From Escherichia phage I29, in sequence record ON286975: DNA of 64,000 bases, one strand, 5' to 3'. The position numbers were made by a program, and so were the translations under genes. This document shows, in pieces, positions 267 through 56,407 of this stretch. Under the pieces are notes generated by a model. It worked only from the letters and a program-made list of their open reading frames with translations, made no database searches and was not told the origin of the DNA. Positions within the stretch are counted from its first letter, which is position 1; every line of letters starts with the position of its first letter.

Positions 267-821
267 TTACTCCCTGCTGTCAATATCAAAACTCATTGCA
301 ATACGGTATGCCTCTTCTAATGGTAAGAGTCTCCCCCACACATCCCAACCGACATCAAGCTGCCTGCCAAACAACTGTTGTGTGGTTCCGTGAGCATGAC
401 CGAACAGTTGGACTGATCCGTGAGGCTTTCTGTTCCACTTTGCAAACTGGTAATGGCTCATACAGATCAAATTCTTGTTGTGGCGAAGCTCGTAATAATC
501 TACAACCTCATGACCGAACTCTTTCATAATTCTGACAGTCGTCCTTGTGTCATGGTTGCCACGAACAAGAATAATATGTCCGTTCAACATATTTAGAATA
601 TCTGGAAGTAAGTTGTTGATATTCTTATCATTAGTGCACGCAATATCTCCCAAGTGGAACACAGTGTCTGCAGGTGACACAACAGAGTTCCACTTGGCGA
701 TGATTCCCGCATTCATACTGTCAAGATTGTGATCATACTGAGATCTGTGTTTTTGACATGAATCAAACTCCATGACCCGCTGGTGGAGAAAGTGTGTGTC
801 GCTTGTTACAAAGTATTTCAT
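267..821 (-). CDS. calcineurin-like metallophosphoesterase (Ser/Thr phosphatase or polynucleotide 3'-phosphatase)
   Basis: Motifs SDTHF, HLGDI, RGNHD, FGHAHG; start taken at internal MKYFVTSDTH rather than the track start at 926. Confidence 0.6.
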   Translation of the reverse strand: MKYFVTSDTHFLHQRVMEFDSCQKHRSQYDHNLDSMNAGIIAKWNSVVSPADTVFHLGDIACTNDKNINNLLPDILNMLNGHIILVRGNHDTRTTVRIMKEFGHEVVDYYELRHNKNLICMSHYQFAKWNRKPHGSVQLFGHAHGTTQQLFGRQLDVGWDVWGRLLPLEEAYRIAMSFDIDSRE

Positions 822-828
822 ACATTCC

Positions 829-1239
829 TCATTTAAGTTTAATGCAGTTTTTAAGCTGGCGTTCCATACGATCCACAACCTTGTCTGGAACATCATGAAT
901 GCTTTTATTACCGTGGCGGTTTTCAACCACGATCACGGTATAACTATACCCATGACTGATTGCCATGTCAACATATTCCTGCACATGTTTTTCTTTTGTA
1001 AACGTATTACTTACCACGATACGGTCGTATCCCATACGCATCATATCTTCTACGTTATCTTTGCACCATTTTGCTGCGAGTGTTACTTTACTTGCATCCC
1101 AGTTGTAATTGCCGTCATCGTCATACCAGAACATGTCGTTCTCAAAATGTGGATACAGACCCTCTAAAGATAGCGCATTTGCCAGTGTTGATTTGCCAGA
1201 CCCTGGTAGACCACGCACGATATATAGCATTTTAGACAT
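829..1239 (-). CDS. P-loop polynucleotide kinase-like protein (Pnk kinase domain-like)
   Basis: Walker A GLPGSGKST at N-terminus, T4 Pnk-like layout; start taken at MSKMLYIV with GGAGG RBS. Confidence 0.55.
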   Translation of the reverse strand: MSKMLYIVRGLPGSGKSTLANALSLEGLYPHFENDMFWYDDDGNYNWDASKVTLAAKWCKDNVEDMMRMGYDRIVVSNTFTKEKHVQEYVDMAISHGYSYTVIVVENRHGNKSIHDVPDKVVDRMERQLKNCIKLK

Positions 1240-1267
1240 AGTGACCCTCCGTTTTAATTTCAACGGT

Positions 1268-1296
1268 AGTATACCTGACTGTTTTGTTAATTTCAA
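1268..1296 (-). promoter_or_regulatory. sigma70-like promoter for the leftward kinase/phosphatase unit
   Basis: TTGAAA-17-TATACT on the minus strand upstream of the RBS. Confidence 0.5.
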
Positions 1297-1339
1297 GTGT
1301 TGACACTAGGTTATTTGTGTGGCAGGATAGACTGACAAA

Positions 1340-2275
1340 ATGACAAATGAGGAACGTATGATGAAGTATTTTAATGCAGACGACCTAGTTGACAAAGGTC
1401 TTGTAACCAGTAGGTATTACCCAGATCTCGGGTTAAAGATCTATAAATATGCTAGAAAAGTATTTTACAACAATTTATGGCATTTGTCCCCTCGTTTACT
1501 GGAGTGCCGAGGCATTGTTGTAGGTAATGAAGGAAATGTTGTGGCATGGCCCTTCACAAAAGTGTTTAACTTGGGAGAAAACTCCACCAACCTGCCTGAC
1601 AATAAGCTTGTGACTGCGGTAGAGAAAAAGAACGGATTCCTTGGTGTGGTATCATCTCATAAAGGTGACCTATTGTTCTCAACAACCGGGTCTCTTGATT
1701 CTCCATATTGTAACCTTGCAAAGGAAACCATCCAAGAGCAATGTGGTAATTTAGATCTTATCAAGAAGGTTATGGGCAATGAAAACATGACATTCATGTT
1801 TGAAATTTGTCACCCTTCAGATCCGCATATTGTTCAAGAAGACCATGGCGCATATTTGATAGGTTGCAGATATAATGATTCTGGAATAATGCTACCAGAA
1901 GCAGCTTTAGATGGGATTGCCAAATACCTTGGTGCAAAACGTCCTCACACTGTGCGTGAAATCCCGTTCAGCTATGCAAAAGAATTAGCTGCAGAAACAA
2001 GGGGCGAAGGGTATATGATCCGTAAGCCTTACTACCCTTATGACCTGCAGCTGAAGATCAAGTCTCCATACTATTTGGCACGGAAGGCCGTAATGAGGGG
2101 TAAAGCTTGGAAGATTTGGGATGATGATATCTTTAAACGTATTGACGAAGAGTTTTATGGCATGGTAAACTTCATTCGTAGCAATTACACAGAAGATGTG
2201 TGGAACTGCCTCCTGGAGCAGGAACGCCGTGAGATACTTGATTGCTATTTTCACAACGAGGACTATATGCAATGA
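1340..2275 (+). CDS. RNA ligase, T4 Rnl1-like
   Basis: ECRGI, KVFNLGEN and nucleotidyltransferase motif I EKKNGFLG resemble T4 RNA ligase 1. Confidence 0.6.
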   Translation: MTNEERMMKYFNADDLVDKGLVTSRYYPDLGLKIYKYARKVFYNNLWHLSPRLLECRGIVVGNEGNVVAWPFTKVFNLGENSTNLPDNKLVTAVEKKNGFLGVVSSHKGDLLFSTTGSLDSPYCNLAKETIQEQCGNLDLIKKVMGNENMTFMFEICHPSDPHIVQEDHGAYLIGCRYNDSGIMLPEAALDGIAKYLGAKRPHTVREIPFSYAKELAAETRGEGYMIRKPYYPYDLQLKIKSPYYLARKAVMRGKAWKIWDDDIFKRIDEEFYGMVNFIRSNYTEDVWNCLLEQERREILDCYFHNEDYMQ

Positions 2276-2622
2276 AGAAGTTGATTGTGTGGCTAGATGA
2301 CTTGAGAGATCCGTCAAATTACGGAATCCAAGATGCTCTTTGGCTGAAGAACTCTTCTGAGTTCATGGATTTTATTAACGATAATAGAAAGCTCTACAGG
2401 CGCGTTTCTGAGTGGCATTTTGACAATGATCTAGGTGAAGTGCTTGAAGGGTACGACTGCTTCTCTGCGCTAGAGGAGAAACTTGTATTCGGAAAGCCAC
2501 CACTTATTGACAACGTGATTATTTTCGTGCATACTTCTAATCCATCGGCAGCTCGTAAATTTATGCTTGCTGCTGACTCATTCAAGAAGTTTGGAATAGA
2601 GATTAAACAAAACATCTACTGA
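2272..2622 (+). CDS. hypothetical protein
   Basis: ORF with GAGGA RBS, ATGA overlap with upstream stop. Confidence 0.4.
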   Translation: MKKLIVWLDDLRDPSNYGIQDALWLKNSSEFMDFINDNRKLYRRVSEWHFDNDLGEVLEGYDCFSALEEKLVFGKPPLIDNVIIFVHTSNPSAARKFMLAADSFKKFGIEIKQNIY

Positions 2623-2630
2623 GGACACTT

Positions 2631-3392
2631 ATGCGACGACTGATTATTATCTCCGGTGCTGGTTTGAGCGCTGAATCTGGTATTCCCACTTTCCGATCTG
2701 GTAGCACTGCAATGTGGGAGAATTTCAGCATCGATGAGGTGTGCAACATCCACACCTTTGCCAAGAACTACTATAAGGTGCATGACTTTTACAATGCACG
2801 TCGTGTAGCTCTGGGCAGTGTTGATCCTAACCTTGCACATCTTCGGATCGCTGAGTGGTATTCCCGCTGGTCTGGTCGTGTGATCAACCTTACTACCAAT
2901 GTAGATGATTTGCTGGAGCGTGCTGGTGTAAAACATGAAGATATTTTACATGTCCACGGGTATTTGCCTGAAATCACCTACGAAGATGCTGAAGGTAATG
3001 ATGTAATTAAAAATATCGGATACACGGAGGTAGATACAGGCAAGTATACCTGGGTTAAGCCCAATGTAGTGTTCTTCGGTGAGGTTGCTCCTAAGTATAC
3101 AGACATGTATGACCTGTTGACATCTCTCACAAGCAATGATATGGTGATCCTGGTAGGTTGTTCTAACACAGTTATTAATTTTAACTGGGAATTGTTTCCT
3201 GCTACTTGTAAAGGCACAAAACTGCTGATTGTAAACAAGTATGATTCGCAGAGTGCAGATGGAAGTGGCATTTCACGTAGCGACCTTTATCAATATGAGG
3301 ATCGCGGGATCCCTGTATGGTTTAACGGTGCTGTTGACGCTTTCTCTGATAAAGCATTTATTGAAACTGTAGAAAACTTTATGGAACTTTAA
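2631..3392 (+). CDS. Sir2-family NAD-dependent protein (sirtuin-like)
   Basis: GAGLSAESGIPTFRSG NAD-binding motif, HVHG catalytic His region, VVFFGE; no zinc-ribbon cysteines. Confidence 0.75.
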   Translation: MRRLIIISGAGLSAESGIPTFRSGSTAMWENFSIDEVCNIHTFAKNYYKVHDFYNARRVALGSVDPNLAHLRIAEWYSRWSGRVINLTTNVDDLLERAGVKHEDILHVHGYLPEITYEDAEGNDVIKNIGYTEVDTGKYTWVKPNVVFFGEVAPKYTDMYDLLTSLTSNDMVILVGCSNTVINFNWELFPATCKGTKLLIVNKYDSQSADGSGISRSDLYQYEDRGIPVWFNGAVDAFSDKAFIETVENFMEL

Positions 3393-3405
3393 AAGGAGAC
3401 CTTTA

Positions 3406-4119
3406 ATGCTGAATACTAAACTGATCGACAACCTGGAAAAACTGTCCCAGCCTGAAAACTACCTTTGGTCTGCCAACTGGGTGGAAAACTGGAACCGTGT
3501 GGCAGCTAAAGTGAAAAAATCATACACACCATTCGAATTACAGCTTAGCTTCATTGAGGAAGAGTTCAATGAGGTTTTGGAAGAGCTGGAGAAAGGTGAT
3601 GGTGGAGATCACCTGCTAAAAGAGGCCTGCGATCTTCACGTTGTCACAAGTTATGCAGCTTATCTTGTTAATGATAACCACGAAAAGTGGTCAAACCTGT
3701 TTGATAATCCGCGAGGTCTTAAGTTCAAGATCGGTGAGTTCTATGATACACTGATCGCTGCGAAAAACACATCCAAGCAAAGAGCGTCAGCTTACCGACT
3801 AGCGGAGTTATCAACAGCTTTGCTGTTCCAGCTTAGCGGGGATGTGTGTGGGATGATGCGGAAGGTTCTAAAATCTAATGACAGTAAGTTTGCACGGATC
3901 AACCATCTACGGCATTCACACGGTGCCAGTGCAGATATGCCTGCTGAACAACTCATCGAGTTGGAGATTAAAGATCTTGAGCGTCGTTTTGGTGGTCGCT
4001 ACGAAGGTTTCGTTGCTAAAGAGGAGTTCTACAACGGCAATAAAGTTATTATATTCCTTGACAGTAAAGGTAAGATTATGAAGCCTTCGAGCTTCAAGGA
4101 TGTAACAGAGTATATTTAA
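3406..4119 (+). CDS. MazG-like nucleotide pyrophosphohydrolase (tentative)
   Basis: Acidic helical EEEFNEVLEELEKGD motif. Confidence 0.35.
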   Translation: MLNTKLIDNLEKLSQPENYLWSANWVENWNRVAAKVKKSYTPFELQLSFIEEEFNEVLEELEKGDGGDHLLKEACDLHVVTSYAAYLVNDNHEKWSNLFDNPRGLKFKIGEFYDTLIAAKNTSKQRASAYRLAELSTALLFQLSGDVCGMMRKVLKSNDSKFARINHLRHSHGASADMPAEQLIELEIKDLERRFGGRYEGFVAKEEFYNGNKVIIFLDSKGKIMKPSSFKDVTEYI

Positions 4120-4125
4120 CAACAT

Positions 4126-4150
4126 AGCCGGGATTACCCGGCTTTACTTA
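4126..4150 (+). terminator. intrinsic terminator-like hairpin
   Basis: agccggg-atta-cccggct stem-loop then T-rich tail. Confidence 0.45.
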
Positions 4151-4181
4151 TTATGGAAAGTATGCAGTGAGGTAGTCAGTT

Positions 4182-4490
4182 ATGTACAAGCATTCCAGAG
4201 ATCTTGAAAAAGATGCTGTGTTTGGCGACCAGATGAAGGAGCTGATCAAACTTATTGGTAGAATGGAAGATAAGTTTGACACTAAAATCTACATCGATAG
4301 CAAGGTCTTCAACCACAAAATATGGACAAATGTGTGTGTTGGGCTACATGGTGATAAAGATATTGTAAATTTGGTTGTAATAAAGTTCATAGTGTGGCAG
4401 AATAGGACTATACGTTATTACGACCCACACTTACTTGTTTATCCTATAAAAGACCTACTACAGAAGGAGGACTGCAATGCCGTTATTTAA
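4182..4490 (+). CDS. hypothetical protein
   Basis: ORF in arm orientation. Confidence 0.4.
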   Translation: MYKHSRDLEKDAVFGDQMKELIKLIGRMEDKFDTKIYIDSKVFNHKIWTNVCVGLHGDKDIVNLVVIKFIVWQNRTIRYYDPHLLVYPIKDLLQKEDCNAVI

Positions 4491-4746
4491 TCTTGCTAAA
4501 CCTGTAGAAGCACATCAGTTTGACGGAAGCTCTTCATCAGTATCTGATCTGCAACGGTGGATTGATACAGGTGTGTTTACATCGTCACCTGTTCGGACCA
4601 GAGATCTTCGTCGCATGTGTGAGCTTGTCGAGCCTTTTGGTAACCTTGTCTTGTACCAGGGAGATTGGCTAGTTGACTTTATGGGAGACTGGTTGGTAAT
4701 GAGTAAAGAAGAGATGTTTAAAATTTTTAAGGAAGAGGCCGAGTAA
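4477..4746 (+). CDS. hypothetical protein
   Basis: ORF in arm orientation, overlapping starts/stops. Confidence 0.4.
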   Translation: MPLFNLAKPVEAHQFDGSSSSVSDLQRWIDTGVFTSSPVRTRDLRRMCELVEPFGNLVLYQGDWLVDFMGDWLVMSKEEMFKIFKEEAE

Positions 4747-6029
4747 TGCATCAGATCAAAACAACACTGTACGCACTGAATAAAGATGGCAGCTACCAAC
4801 AGTGGAAAGTATTCACGGATGGTGATAAGGTTATCGTAGAGTTTGGCAAGCTTGATGGTAAACTGCAGTACAAAGAGACGGTATGCACACCTAAGAACGT
4901 AGGTCGTGCCAACGAGACTACAGCTGAGCAACAGGCCGAGCTTGAGGCTATCAGCAAGTGGGAAAAACAAGTCCGTCTGGGGTATGTTGAAAACATGGAA
5001 GATTGCGAGCAGGGTGTTGATCTTTTACCCATGCTGGTGCATGACTACCTGAAGCGTGGCAAGGCACTTAAATTACCTTGCTGGATCTTGCGTAAGTTAG
5101 ATGGCCTTCGTCTGCTTGTTGTTTTCCAAAATGGTGAGCCTAAATTTATTTCCCGTGGTAATAAGTCCTACCCTATTCAAGGAAAGCTTTTAGAGCAACT
5201 TCGTTCTTTCCATTCTACCACTGGGATTAAACAACTTGATGGGGAACTATACATTCATGGTCTTCCTTTGCAGAAAATAGTGTCTCTTGCTAAACGGTGG
5301 CGCACACAGGAAGAGATTCAGGCCGAGATCGATAAAGACTATGAGGCAGATAAAAAACGCCGTCATGCAGCAATTAAGGCAGGTTTATCAACATACAAAA
5401 ACTTCAACAAGGTAGATATTCCTGTCGATGTTGAGCCTGTTCGTGATGATTTGCGTTACGGTGGGTACTGTAGCTACGATCTGGAGTATCACATTTTTGA
5501 TATTCCTAGCGACAAGGTGTGGTGGGATCCAGAAACAGAGTCTGGACGCTGCAAGGATCTTATGGATGCAGAGGATACCGTTACCACTCTGATGCTTGAC
5601 CATATCAAGGTTGTTGACGCAGAGCTTGCGTACACAGTTGATCATTGCGAAGAATCTGTTGGTATATTCATGTCCGAAGGATATGAAGGTACTATCATGC
5701 GTAATTTCTGCGGTAAATACGAGTACGGTCAGCGAACATCTGAAGCATTGAAATGGAAAAAGTTCAACGACGCAGAGGTGAAAGTTATTGACGTTGAGAA
5801 AGATAAGAATGATGAAGGTGTTCTTATCTGTGTTGACAAGGAAGGTGTTATTGTTAAAATGAAGATGAAAGGCACGCACGAGGAGCGTAGCTATGACAGG
5901 ATGCAGGAAATGATCGGCAAGTTTGTCACCTTCAAATATCAATCAAGGACAGAAGACAACAACTACCAATTCCCTGTCGGTATCTGCGTCCGAAATGTTG
6001 ACCCAGACACTTGGGAGGTTCTGGAATGA
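4746..6029 (+). CDS. ATP-dependent DNA ligase (T7-like)
   Basis: Motif I KLDGLR, EGTIMR and ALKWKK motifs as in T7 DNA ligase. Confidence 0.7.
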   Translation: MHQIKTTLYALNKDGSYQQWKVFTDGDKVIVEFGKLDGKLQYKETVCTPKNVGRANETTAEQQAELEAISKWEKQVRLGYVENMEDCEQGVDLLPMLVHDYLKRGKALKLPCWILRKLDGLRLLVVFQNGEPKFISRGNKSYPIQGKLLEQLRSFHSTTGIKQLDGELYIHGLPLQKIVSLAKRWRTQEEIQAEIDKDYEADKKRRHAAIKAGLSTYKNFNKVDIPVDVEPVRDDLRYGGYCSYDLEYHIFDIPSDKVWWDPETESGRCKDLMDAEDTVTTLMLDHIKVVDAELAYTVDHCEESVGIFMSEGYEGTIMRNFCGKYEYGQRTSEALKWKKFNDAEVKVIDVEKDKNDEGVLICVDKEGVIVKMKMKGTHEERSYDRMQEMIGKFVTFKYQSRTEDNNYQFPVGICVRNVDPDTWEVLE

Positions 6030-7368: not shown

Positions 7369-7651
7369 GAAACCTGCAAAAGAGAAATTTGATAAGACAG
7401 CTTTTGTATTCGATACACCTCTGGACGATATCATCAGAGGTATGCAAGCCTTGTATCGGAAGTCTGAATCTGAGCAGTTGTCGGAATCAGAGCTTTACTG
7501 GTTGGGTTGGTGGGAGCTTAATCTACCTAAAGCTGAAAGCTCTGATCTAAAAACCGTTAAAACGTGTGCCCAAGAAAATGCTGCACTTGGAATTTACCAC
7601 AAAAGAAAAAGATCAACAAAAAGCTCTCCAAGAAAGACTAAAAAGTCTTGA
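7358..7651 (+). CDS. hypothetical basic protein
   Basis: ORF in arm orientation. Confidence 0.35.
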   Translation: MMAKKPAKEKFDKTAFVFDTPLDDIIRGMQALYRKSESEQLSESELYWLGWWELNLPKAESSDLKTVKTCAQENAALGIYHKRKRSTKSSPRKTKKS

Positions 7652-7677
7652 CAAATGAGTCTCTGATCTGATATTAT
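7648..7677 (+). promoter_or_regulatory. sigma70-like promoter
   Basis: TTGACA-17/18-TATTAT. Confidence 0.55.
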
Positions 7678-7710
7678 CAGTTAACTATTTATTAACTAGG
7701 AGAACTAGGT

Positions 7711-8019
7711 ATGCTTAAAATTTTTATTGTTGAAGATAAAGATATCGTCCAGTTGTATGCAAATGAGAATCACAAAGGTATGATTCTGAAGAAGGCAAGC
7801 AACCTTCATGAAAACACAATTCAACCTGGCGATGTAATTAAGATCTGTGGCTATCTGATACCAGACTCCTTGATGAAAATAACCCACCACTGGGGGTCTA
7901 ATCCGTTCCTTTTTGAAAAGTATTGGGATGTTGAGTCACTTATTGCAGAAAGTGATGATGCATTTCATTACAGCATCCAACCATCTTGCAGAGTAACTAA
8001 CAGGAGGGGCTTTGAGTAG
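7711..8019 (+). CDS. hypothetical protein
   Basis: ORF downstream of promoter, AGGAGA RBS. Confidence 0.45.
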   Translation: MLKIFIVEDKDIVQLYANENHKGMILKKASNLHENTIQPGDVIKICGYLIPDSLMKITHHWGSNPFLFEKYWDVESLIAESDDAFHYSIQPSCRVTNRRGFE

Positions 8020-9151
8020 AGAATATCCACTTATTGAATCTGTAGATTGTCTTGCTGATCTTCTCGAACCTGACGCTATAGTTTATTATGACTTCGACCA
8101 GGTTGCATATCAAGCTGCGGCAAGTTGTGAAAAAAGGACAATTGAGGTAACACACAAAGCCTCCGGACGCAAGAAGATGTTTAAAACACGAACAGAGTTC
8201 TGGGGGCGGCAGAAGAACACCGTTGGTGGTTGGTTAAAAGCTGAGAATACCAACCGTGAAGCCGCATGTAAAAAGGCTGGAAAGGAGTTTATTCCGTGGA
8301 CACGCGAAGATTTCGATGTCTTGGATATCCAAACCCCTGATCCTGTAGAGAACTGCTTACACACAATTAAGTGTAAAGCTAATGCAGTTCTTAACTATCT
8401 AGGTATTCCGGAAGAGCGATGTGTCGGGGTGTTGGGAGGCACAGGTAACTTCAGACTAGATCTTCCAATGCCGGAAAGATACAAGGCCAACCGTAACAAT
8501 ACTCTTCGACCACTGCTGCTTGGAGATGCAAGACAGTATCTACAAAAGCAGTATAATGCTCAAGTGATCAACGGTATCGAGGCTGACGACTGGTTAGCTA
8601 TTCAGCAATTTGAAGGTTGGAACCACTACCAAAAAACAGGTAAGTTCAACAAGTTTATTATCTCTATTGATAAGGACCAAAGAACACTACCTGGGCTTGT
8701 GTTCGATCCCATGCGAAACGATAAGGGGGATTTTGTAAGGGAAACCCCTATGCTGATCGATAACGGTATGGGGAACATCTTCATGAAGCCTAATGGAGAG
8801 GTTGGTGGTTACGGAATGCTGTTCTTCGGATACCAAATGCTGTGTGGTGACTCTGCTGACAACATTAAGCCGTATCAAGGACTTATCGGTAAGGGTAAGT
8901 TCGGGGATGCCTCAGCATTCTACCTACTGTCTCAGTGCAGCACTCCAAAGGAGATGTGGGTGGCTATTATTGATCAGTACAAGAAGTGGTTCCCGAAAGG
9001 TGTTGTTAAGTATACTGACTTCAATGGTGTTGATCGTAGAATTTCCGTAGGTCAATGGATGAGTATAATTTTTGACTGTTTGTATATGAAGCGAACATTC
9101 AATGATCAAACAAAACTTGTTAACGTTCTTAGAAATGTTGGAGCAATTTGA
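8012..9151 (+). CDS. 5'-3' exonuclease / flap endonuclease (T4 RNase H-like)
   Basis: IVYYDFDQVAY, GIEADDWLAI, ISIDKDQRTL, GDSADNIKP resemble T4 RNase H / FEN. Confidence 0.75.
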   Translation: MSREYPLIESVDCLADLLEPDAIVYYDFDQVAYQAAASCEKRTIEVTHKASGRKKMFKTRTEFWGRQKNTVGGWLKAENTNREAACKKAGKEFIPWTREDFDVLDIQTPDPVENCLHTIKCKANAVLNYLGIPEERCVGVLGGTGNFRLDLPMPERYKANRNNTLRPLLLGDARQYLQKQYNAQVINGIEADDWLAIQQFEGWNHYQKTGKFNKFIISIDKDQRTLPGLVFDPMRNDKGDFVRETPMLIDNGMGNIFMKPNGEVGGYGMLFFGYQMLCGDSADNIKPYQGLIGKGKFGDASAFYLLSQCSTPKEMWVAIIDQYKKWFPKGVVKYTDFNGVDRRISVGQWMSIIFDCLYMKRTFNDQTKLVNVLRNVGAI

Positions 9152-55533: not shown

Positions 55534-55990
55534 TCAACACTTTTTGTACTCCACCACGACAATATCTATGTCGAAAGTGGCAAGGTTAATAACGTCCTCT
55601 ACGTGTTCCCACTTCAAACCGCCTATGCCGCACCCGATCTTAGGTATGTAGAATGGTAAAGTCGATCCGCTGAATACTTCATTGACTAGCTCAAAGCCTT
55701 TCAGGATTGAGAAATACTCAGCATTAGGTCCTGGGTAGAACTGGGTATATAGATTGATTCCGTAGACAATACCTATCGGAGATAAGTGCTCCCATCGGGA
55801 GAACGCACCCAGTTTACTTAGGCAACCGTATCTAGTCTCTTTGTCGGCTGACAGTGCTTGAGGAAACTCACGGGCAATCTGTTTTGCTATACCCTTGCCC
55901 ATTGTGTGGAAGCAGTTACAACCGTGGATCAGGTGACCAGCACCGCTCTTAAAAAGGGAGATTAAATCTCCCTCTACAGTATCAATAATC
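55534..55990 (-). CDS. macro-domain protein (ADP-ribose binding/processing)
   Basis: IIDTVEGDL, HGCNCFHTMGKGIAKQI, IPKIGCGIGG follow the macro-domain pattern; GTG start assumed after upstream gene. Confidence 0.6.
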
Positions 55991-56407
55991 ACGGTAAGCC
56001 AGCTCCTCTTCCGCAATTTCAAAAAACTCAGTCCAGCACTGTGGCATATTGGAGTTACCGAAGTGGCTTTCATAGTAAAGGTTCTTACCGCTAGGAAGGT
56101 AGAAATCTGTTACCTCATAAAATCCACAATCGTCGCACTCACCTTCTTCAAACTTGGCCTTAACCTTAATACCGAGGAAGGTGAAAAGTTTATGGACATC
56201 TTCAGTTTCGAACTCCCAGGGAATGTTGTTTTCCGCATCGGTGTAGAACTGGATCAGCAGACCATTGTCCAGTTTACCAAAATACTCTGTGAAGTAACTT
56301 CCTTCCCAGAAATCTTTATGACAAATAATATCCATGCGTTTGCCCATAATAATGGTGTGAGCGTTTTGGGCATCGTCACGAATCAGTTTTGGCATTTCAT
56401 AGATCAT
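55982..56407 (-). CDS. hypothetical protein
   Basis: ORF in arm orientation. Confidence 0.4.
   Translation of the reverse strand: MIYEMPKLIRDDAQNAHTIIMGKRMDIICHKDFWEGSYFTEYFGKLDNGLLIQFYTDAENNIPWEFETEDVHKLFTFLGIKVKAKFEEGECDDCGFYEVTDFYLPSGKNLYYESHFGNSNMPQCWTEFFEIAEEELAYRDY

Follow-up and report, generated by a model that had tools for sequence, protein, structure and literature searches.

According to Iyer, Burroughs, Anantharaman & Aravind (2022, Viruses 14:1977), the sirtuins of phages occur in three types of gene neighborhood, and the prototypes of type 2 are Escherichia phage V5 and Proteus phage Mydo. The role predicted in the same study is that of a KptA/Tpt1-like RNA 2′-phosphotransferase dependent on nicotinamide adenine dinucleotide (NAD, or NAD+). 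The cREC domain, which recurs in this setting, is a receiver-like domain linked to RNA ligases and predicted to process cyclic phosphates (Iyer et al., 2021, PMC7824862). In this study, we describe a sirtuin gene at positions 2631-3392 of a stretch of 64,000 nucleotides from Escherichia phage I29 (sequence record ON286975), which we call the window and which belongs to a Vequintavirus (an rV5-like coliphage). Its neighbors in common with the type 2 clade are a T4-like RNA ligase, cREC, a nucleotide kinase, a MazG pyrophosphatase, and a calcineurin-like phosphoesterase, and all five kinds lie within 267-4119, the phosphoesterase being optional for the type. The locus is a member of the published type 2 family, and both the annotation of the gene and the prediction of its role precede our work. 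The first-pass annotation of this DNA contained neither that prediction nor the cREC gene directly upstream of the sirtuin.

We believe that this sirtuin may be a catalytically competent, zinc-independent enzyme that acts in phage RNA repair and not on proteins, and we give this reading a probability of roughly 40%; the identity of the substrate as RNA and the chemistry at each step are inferred. What we add to the published description is that the zinc ligands are lost from a module whose fold is retained, that this loss co-varies with the change Q89T, that the class III pocket is retained, and that the isoelectric point (pI) is acidic. Further small additions are the RlaP/SPFH and NAMPT/NMNAT gene contexts. 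The value of this re-analysis is modest; the residues that it singles out are H109, N90, Y54, R57, and T89.

The sirtuin, its active site, and its zinc segment

The start codon of the sirtuin gene is preceded at 5 nucleotides by the Shine-Dalgarno sequence GAGGA. The product matched the Pfam profile SIR2 (PF02146) over profile positions 1-178 of 180 with an expect value (E) of 6.9e-28 and 98.2 bits (gathering cut-off, 24 bits), and SIR2 was the only significant family among its Pfam matches. It also matched PHROG 2162 'Sir2' at E=1.5e-108, and its top sequence matches in the PDB were E. coli CobB and human SIRT5 (both E ~1e-21). An AlphaFold2 model computed from an alignment of 57 sequences had a predicted local distance difference test (pLDDT) score of 90.2 and a predicted template modeling (pTM) score of 0.88. 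Foldseek placed CobB nearest to this model (E ~3e-18, template modeling scores of 0.75/0.84), followed by Sir2Af1 and SIRT5, and the fold matches were sirtuins throughout. Judged by its sequence, the 253-residue product is a real NAD-using sirtuin, with a family match far beyond chance, and it forms one domain that is accompanied by neither a sensor nor a partner domain. The first-pass annotation had described a phage-encoded Sir2-like protein with a clear NAD-binding motif and a clear catalytic HG, and it had proposed a structure prediction with a comparison to sirtuins. This description stands: the motif GAGLSAESGIPTFRSG occupies residues 9-24, the HG is His109-Gly110, and the predicted fold, which matches CobB and SIRT5, contains the Rossmann NAD site.

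To place these residues among relatives, we used a HMMER search of 1.84 billion representatives, which returned 5,496 sirtuin relatives, and an alignment of 142 sequences that comprised the query and 141 of the best 150 relatives, namely those of at least 200 residues. H109 is identical in 142/142 of the aligned representatives and N90 is likewise invariant, as are D92 and G110 in the homolog alignments. The residues G9, A10, G11, S16, F21, and R22 of the NAD-binding motif (GAGxS...FR) show no variation in 57 homologs. Moreover, Y54 and R57 align with Y92/R95 of CobB and Y102/R105 of SIRT5. Both are without variation in close homologs, and among the 142 representatives the Tyr is found at position 54 in 135 and the Arg at position 57 in 104. 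The position in the acyl pocket taken by A76 in CobB and A86 in SIRT5 is occupied by another small residue, C38, which is invariant in close homologs. The alignment thus indicates that this phage sirtuin has the pocket of class III, defined as Tyr-x-x-Arg plus a small residue at the position of SIRT5 Ala86. On the other hand, the phage clade has GCSNxVINF where CobB has GTSGHVYPAA.

The first-pass annotation held that the zinc-ribbon module was lacking. The only cysteines of the protein are C38, C177, and C193, and none lies between HG and FFGE (residues 111-147); therefore, the sirtuin has no CxxC...CxxC, and this part of the claim is correct. Among 120 homologs (46-93% identity), the segment from HG to FGE contains no cysteine in 70, one in 48, and two in 2, and therefore none of them has a four-cysteine site. 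The segment itself has been kept. It is 37 residues long in the query and 37-38 in most of the 120 homologs, and AlphaFold2 predicts three beta strands in it (residues 110-118, 124-128, and 142-146, pLDDT ~95). Given the retained length and the confident three-stranded model, what was described as a lacking module is better read as lacking zinc ligands. On the predicted structure, the phage sirtuin appears to have lost the ligands and retained the fold of the module. Zinc is not mentioned in connection with this clade in the text of Iyer et al. (2022, Viruses 14:1977).

The loss of the cysteines co-varies with the change from Gln to Thr in TQNxD. In the 142-sequence alignment, at least three segment cysteines are present in 76 of the TQNxD sequences and fewer in 7; the sequences with TTNVD have at most two in 37 cases and at least three in 11. 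Both the zinc-bearing and the zinc-free groups carry the signatures VCN, FYNxRR, and KPNVVFFGExAPxY, which indicates that the loss of zinc and the Gln-to-Thr change arose within one subfamily that had by then separated from CobB. A cluster look-up of the zinc-bearing relatives listed metagenomic members only.

Escherichia phage AlexBoehm (Vequintavirus, BASEL collection) and phage A6-1 share the stretch 2000-4200 at 100% identity, and 120 phage records match this stretch at 80% identity or more; over the whole window, the identity to AlexBoehm is 93-98.5%. The identical sirtuin of AlexBoehm is bas56_0207, annotated 'sirtuin domain NAD-dependent deacetylase'. By tblastn, 975 of 50,697 phage records contain a homolog, among them Vequintavirinae, T5-like phages, Klebsiella phages of ~145 kb, phi92-like phages, Vibrio phages of ~250 kb, and jumbo phages of ~350 kb. 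Among the matches listed, nearly all homologs carry a Sir2 deacetylase label. When one genome per species was searched across 185,579 bacterial and archaeal species, peptide patterns specific to the clade turned up at 2 loci only, and the zinc-free clade thus seems to be essentially restricted to phages. Several labels in the public records need caution. The sirtuins of MG065653.1 and MG065676.1 ('Campylobacter phage C14' and 'A116') are 99-100% identical to those of E. coli Vequintavirus phages, and 18-25 records with 'Campylobacter' names match the sirtuin; apparently, either the host assignment is mistaken or the records are contaminated. In OY978796.1 (Klebsiella phage vB_Kpn_K45PH128C2), the feature at a sirtuin match of 56% identity is named 'nicotinamide-nucleotide adenylyltransferase', which is probably a mis-annotation.

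Gene neighborhoods in the window and in other lineages

The sirtuin is the third gene of the compact unit Rnl1-cREC-Sir2-MazG-like, which lies within an RNA-repair cassette (Table 1). The stop codon of the ligase and the start codon of cREC overlap in ATGA, 8 nucleotides separate cREC from the sirtuin, and 13 separate the sirtuin from the MazG-like gene. The first-pass annotation, which had placed the gene next to the cassette, was right about the proximity to repair genes; the position is in fact inside. The hairpin directly after the MazG-like gene is likely to be the terminator that closes the unit, and from its T tracts on both strands it is probably bidirectional. A promoter scan found 19 candidates compared with 15.1 ± 3.8 expected, which is not above chance. 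An ortholog of the MazG-like protein matches Pfam PRA-PH (E=1.5e-4), and the phosphoesterase gene carries the annotation 'putative phosphoresterase'. PDB sequence searches with the kinase and the phosphoesterase of the cassette gave no informative match. In AlexBoehm, six tRNA genes (Pro, Ile, Thr, Lys, Tyr, and Arg; locus L001, 422-1234) lie just upstream of the point that corresponds to position 1 of the window. Such a cluster ~3 kb from the cassette fits a conflict with host anticodon nucleases that is centered on tRNAs.

Table 1. Coordinates (nucleotides of the window) of the features considered in this study.
Feature	Position	Strand	Basis
Calcineurin-like metallophosphoesterase, divergent	267..821	-	Pfam Metallophos_2 and Metallophos, E ~1e-6
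P-loop polynucleotide-kinase-like protein, divergent	829..1239	-	Pfam AAA_33, E=1.8e-10; annotated 'polynucleotide kinase'
T4 Rnl1-family RNA ligase, gene 1 of unit	1340..2275	+	Pfam RNA_lig_T4_1, E=1.1e-14; annotated 'RNA ligase'
cREC (cyclic-phosphate-processing receiver-like domain) protein, gene 2	2272..2622	+	Pfam cREC_REC (PF20274), E=5.7e-14
Sirtuin (gene 3; 253 aa), class III-like, of the 'TTNVD' phage clade that lacks zinc ligands	2631..3392	+	ATG-start open reading frame
NAD-binding motif GAGLSAESGIPTFRSG, aa 9-24	2655..2702	+	read from sequence
Y54-N-A-R57, class III Tyr-x-x-Arg anion-binding motif	2790..2801	+	alignment with CobB/SIRT5
TTNVDD motif (TQNxD in canonical sirtuins)	2892..2909	+	Asn90 and Asp92 kept, Gln changed to Thr89
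Catalytic His109-Gly110	2955..2960	+	within HVHG, residues 107-110
Equivalent of zinc module, aa 111-147, Cys-free	2961..3071	+	predicted three-stranded beta sheet
MazG-like nucleotide pyrophosphohydrolase, gene 4	3406..4119	+	PHROG 671 'nucleotide pyrophosphohydrolase', E=1.9e-21
GC-rich hairpin AGCCGGG-ATTA-CCCGGCT, T tracts on both strands	4126..4143	.	perfect 7-bp stem, 6 GC pairs
ATP-dependent DNA ligase, downstream of four-gene unit	4746-6029		
Macrodomain open reading frame, 179 aa from first ATG	55534..56073	-	partial Pfam Macro, E=3.5e-6; PHROG 335, E=6e-59

For the neighborhoods in other lineages, we fetched 64 IMG/VR loci in which the sirtuin identity ranges from 39% to 90%. The first group consists of 14 loci from phages of 135-150 kb (sirtuin identity 45-57%). 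The ligase, the kinase, the phosphoesterase, the MazG-like gene, and the DNA ligase are each found in 12-15 of the loci (AlexBoehm being counted) and cREC in 9, all within 6 kb, and the cassette stays together although the gene order is shuffled. The second group, ~31 T5-like loci in which T5.102 is 57% identical to the sirtuin, has none of these six neighbors. Downstream of the sirtuin in 28 loci, however, is a gene for the HAD_SAK_2 'Swiss Army Knife RNA repair' phosphatase (E=1.8e-20), from which it is separated by a few small genes (two are annotated in T5). A third association occurs in L061, a divergent viral contig of the ~120 kb class, where a module upstream of the sirtuin, at a distance of four genes, encodes a Band_7/SPFH protein and RlaP, an RNA-repair Pol-beta nucleotidyltransferase (E=5e-12), at 490-2707; the order is RlaP, Band_7/SPFH, two genes of unknown function, NAMPT, a small open reading frame, Sir2, EndoVII, and NrdD. 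At least three unrelated kinds of RNA-end-processing enzyme thus recur beside the sirtuin, and the association is not universal.

Several side observations concern these loci. RefSeq labels T5.105 (L066, 7143-7649) 'Sir2 (NAD-dependent deacetylase)', a name also given to PHROG 18062; because the homologs of T5.105 in T5-like loci match HAD_SAK_2 (E=1.8e-20), the label seems to have spread from a mistaken annotation. Two tandem paralogous DUF7415 genes (~130-140 aa, Pfam E=2.6e-23) always lie 3′ of HAD_SAK_2 in T5-like loci, at ~7650-8480 in the locus coordinates of L003-L022 and others. The layout of open reading frames in L067 matches that of L061, and the second Band_7 match of our census would fit L067.

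NAD+ salvage is a second recurring theme among the neighbors, besides RNA repair. NAMPT and NMNAT form a pair that reconstitutes NAD+. In the jumbo phages EJP2 (L072, 1-5726) and pEa_SNUABM_50 (L074, 812-6671), the sirtuin lies in a same-strand cluster with both genes, and in the latter, a BF-like phage, a Nudix hydrolase gene is directly 3′ of the sirtuin cluster member. In L061 (4057-6702), NAMPT is just upstream of the sirtuin on the same strand, and L063 has a gene of the NAPRTase family a few kb from the sirtuin. The third NAPRTase match of the census would fit a 475-aa open reading frame upstream of the sirtuin in L067. NAMPT was sought in the window and in those parts of AlexBoehm that lie beyond it, and no match was obtained. 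We also checked NARP3 (PnuC plus NadR) as a possible link to the sirtuin; the sirtuin is not involved in it.

The first-pass annotation had pointed to a macrodomain protein in the other arm of the window. This protein exists and is, by its sequence, a genuine stand-alone macrodomain protein, but a partnership with the sirtuin is unsupported: the genes are 53 kb apart and the protein is DarG-like. Its best family matches are to the DarG macrodomain (PADLOC, E=5e-13); the match to NCBIfam antitoxin_DarG has E=4e-12 and is far under the model cut-off, and there is weaker similarity in the PDB to Poa1p and TARG1/OARD1. Only one of the 65 loci screened (L048) has a homolog of this gene in the fetched flanks of the sirtuin. 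Orphan NADAR antitoxin-like phage genes neutralize DarTG1 (PMC11825919), and by analogy a counter-defense of the anti-DarTG2 type against DNA ADP-ribosylation is at least as likely for the macrodomain protein as a link to the sirtuin. The two genes are probably unrelated. In class M sirtuins (SirTM), QG stands in place of HG, the macrodomain gene is adjacent in the same operon or fused, and the zinc domain is kept. The phage sirtuin keeps HG, with an invariant His, and has no adjacent macrodomain gene, which excludes it from class M. Of the two activities suggested by the first-pass annotation, ADP-ribosyltransferase in this macrodomain-linked form is accordingly discarded, and deacylase remains a live rival.

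A proposed role in RNA repair and its alternatives

If the sirtuin acts in RNA repair, the cassette could work as follows. The kinase would phosphorylate the 5′ end of the RNA, cREC and/or the metallophosphoesterase would open the cyclic phosphate, and Rnl1 would seal the break. A 2′-phosphate left at the junction or terminus would then be removed by the sirtuin with NAD+ as the acceptor: an oxygen of the phosphate would attack the nicotinamide ribose at C1″ and displace nicotinamide, as in Tpt1/KptA chemistry. The resulting by-product might be degraded by cREC, MazG-like, or Nudix-type enzymes. The mechanisms of sirtuins and Tpt1 are alike in that the first step is the attack of an oxygen nucleophile on C1″ of NAD+ and the second step uses the 2″-OH of the ribose. 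In SIRT5 and CobB, the Tyr-x-x-Arg pocket holds an anionic group, a carboxylate. Because both steps are common to the two mechanisms, the activating His is invariant, and the anion pocket is kept, we consider a chemistry on RNA phosphate plausible. By analogy, the pocket could bind a phosphate, and the retained catalytic His fits a two-step transfer and cyclization, unlike SirTM, which lost this His. In its most specific form, which we offer tentatively, the proposal is that the zinc-free clade is a Rossmann-fold counterpart of Tpt1/KptA that arose by convergence and removes 2′-phosphates from repaired tRNA or mRNA with NAD+, with Tyr-x-x-Arg holding the phosphate and His109 driving the cyclization.

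The arguments for a role in RNA repair are the position in the operon, the cassette that stays together, the RNA-repair domains beside the sirtuin in other lineages, the invariant residues, the restriction of the clade to phages, the scores far below the CobB cut-offs, the changes specific to the clade, and the independent prediction that named phage V5. Several observations weigh against it. The T4-type pathway of kinase, phosphoesterase, and Rnl1 normally leaves no 2′-phosphate, and therefore the need for a removal step is unproven. A PDB sequence search with the ligase of the cassette, made to tell the T4 Rnl1 type from the Trl1 type, which requires a 2′-phosphate, gave no significant match. 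The acidity of the clade (pI 4.9 in the query, median 5.1 across 119 homologs) is unusual for an enzyme that binds RNA, and the nearest characterized relatives are protein deacylases throughout. Furthermore, genes of nucleic-acid metabolism cluster in phages anyway, which inflates guilt by association. Homologs of the RNA ligase, the kinase, and cREC were sought in positions 1-63 kb of T5 and none was detected. In a third group of ~13 phi92-like loci, the neighbors are all of unknown function and none is a recognized RNA-repair gene, and the only neighbors of the sirtuin in Vibrio phage D525 are thymidylate synthase and topoisomerase, with no recognized RNA repair. In the literature that we searched, no biochemical or genetic study of any phage sirtuin was found.

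The main rival is that the sirtuin is an NAD+-dependent lysine deacylase like CobB and SIRT5, probably acting on acidic acyl groups (succinyl, malonyl), with which the infecting phage would reset the acylation of its own proteins or those of the host; a self-stabilizing beta sheet would have replaced the zinc site. The best sequence and fold matches (CobB, SIRT5, and Sir2Af1) are all deacylases, every NCBIfam match is to a deacylase model, and the full catalytic set is kept together with the class III signature (Y54, R57, and C38). In its low pI, the protein is similar to the CobB fragment (5.27), and some carriers of the sirtuin show no RNA-repair neighbors. However, the scores against the CobB-type models are far under the equivalog cut-offs (NF040867, 104 bits against 320; NF001753, 122.6 bits against 243). 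Below all curated NCBIfam cut-offs (104-123 vs. 243-320 bits), the protein was rejected as a plain ortholog of CobB. The clade is restricted to phages, though their hosts already own CobB, and it is repeatedly linked, irrespective of lineage, to RNA-end-processing genes. In addition, the Gln of TQNxD and the substrate-side motif GTSxxVxP have been changed and then strictly conserved. We regard a deacylase of this kind as possible and on balance doubtful.

A second alternative, which we think unlikely, is a role in a small-molecule network of NAD+ and ADP-ribose, or in the ADP-ribosylation of another macromolecule, alongside phage NAD+ salvage; the enzyme might make or destroy a metabolite or signal derived from ADP-ribose or modify the end of a nucleic acid. 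The clusters with NAMPT and NMNAT in EJP2 and pEa_SNUABM_50, the NAMPT of L061, the NAPRTase-family gene of L063, and the MazG-like or Nudix pyrophosphatases that adjoin the sirtuin all agree with such a role, and phage Sir2 domains have been discussed as possible generators of ADP-ribose-derived signals (Iyer et al., PMC7824862). Salvage genes would nevertheless be expected beside any consumer of NAD+ and do not identify the acceptor, and NAMPT was absent from the window and the further parts of AlexBoehm. The retained His and Tyr-x-x-Arg pocket point instead to a specific anionic substrate and not to plain hydrolysis.

The weakest alternative, and a highly improbable one, is that the phage encodes a Sir2 effector of the defense type, which would deplete NAD+ and might, for instance, serve superinfection exclusion. 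NADases of the Sir2 kind occur widely in anti-phage systems, and pairing with HerA is described for some phage sirtuins (Iyer et al., 2022), but the likeness drawn in the first-pass annotation fails because none of the 5,027 PADLOC models searched matched at E<=0.01, SIR2_2 scored 13.2 bits against a cut-off of 24.5, the protein is a single domain, no HerA, TIR, or pAgo was recognized among the annotated neighbors, and the phage is strictly lytic. A part in host takeover or counter-defense, also suggested there, is compatible with our results and unspecific.

Should the reading of the sirtuin as an RNA-repair enzyme be true, it would be the first sirtuin shown to have a phosphate of a nucleic acid as its acceptor, a new reaction in sirtuin chemistry, and it would add a step to phage counter-defense against RNA-cleaving immunity. 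The relatives of rV5, T5, and phi92 (~2% of sequenced phage records) would then carry an NAD+-dependent form of RNA healing that counters the anticodon nucleases of the host and RNases like them. Such healing would tie phage RNA repair to the contest over NAD+ between the NADases of defense systems and the NAD+ salvage of phages.

Comparison with known systems

The defense Sir2 NADases (ThsA, DSR1/2, SIR2-HerA, and SPARSA) and the phage sirtuin have the Sir2 superfamily in common. The former belong to another, SIR2_2-like family and are multi-domain or partnered bacterial proteins; to our knowledge, they likewise lack a zinc ribbon. With SirTM, the phage sirtuin shares the sirtuin fold and a macrodomain protein encoded in the same genome, and it differs in that HG is kept, the zinc ligands are lost, and the macrodomain gene lies 53 kb away. 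In comparison with CobB and SIRT5, the common elements are the GAGxS...FR, FYNxRR, N/D, HG, and VVxFGE motifs. The phage sirtuin differs from both in having no zinc cysteines, Thr for the Gln of TQNID, and GCSNxVINF for GTSGHVYPAA, and it lies under the equivalog cut-offs, is restricted to phages, and is set in an RNA-repair operon.

The likeness proposed to Tpt1/KptA, which is drawn by analogy, would consist of NAD+ as the phosphate acceptor, the release of nicotinamide, and the use of the 2″-OH in a second step; both are also associated with an RNA ligase and with enzymes that process cyclic phosphates. Tpt1, however, belongs to the ADP-ribosyltransferase superfamily, and the phage protein is a Rossmann-fold sirtuin with no homology to it. 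Because SIR2 is its only significant Pfam family and its fold matches are sirtuins only, the phage protein could at most be an analogue of Tpt1/KptA. The closest described system is the type 2 clade of Iyer et al. (2022), which includes the same genus, Vequintavirus, and has the same set of neighbors, and from which the locus in the window differs in nothing substantive.

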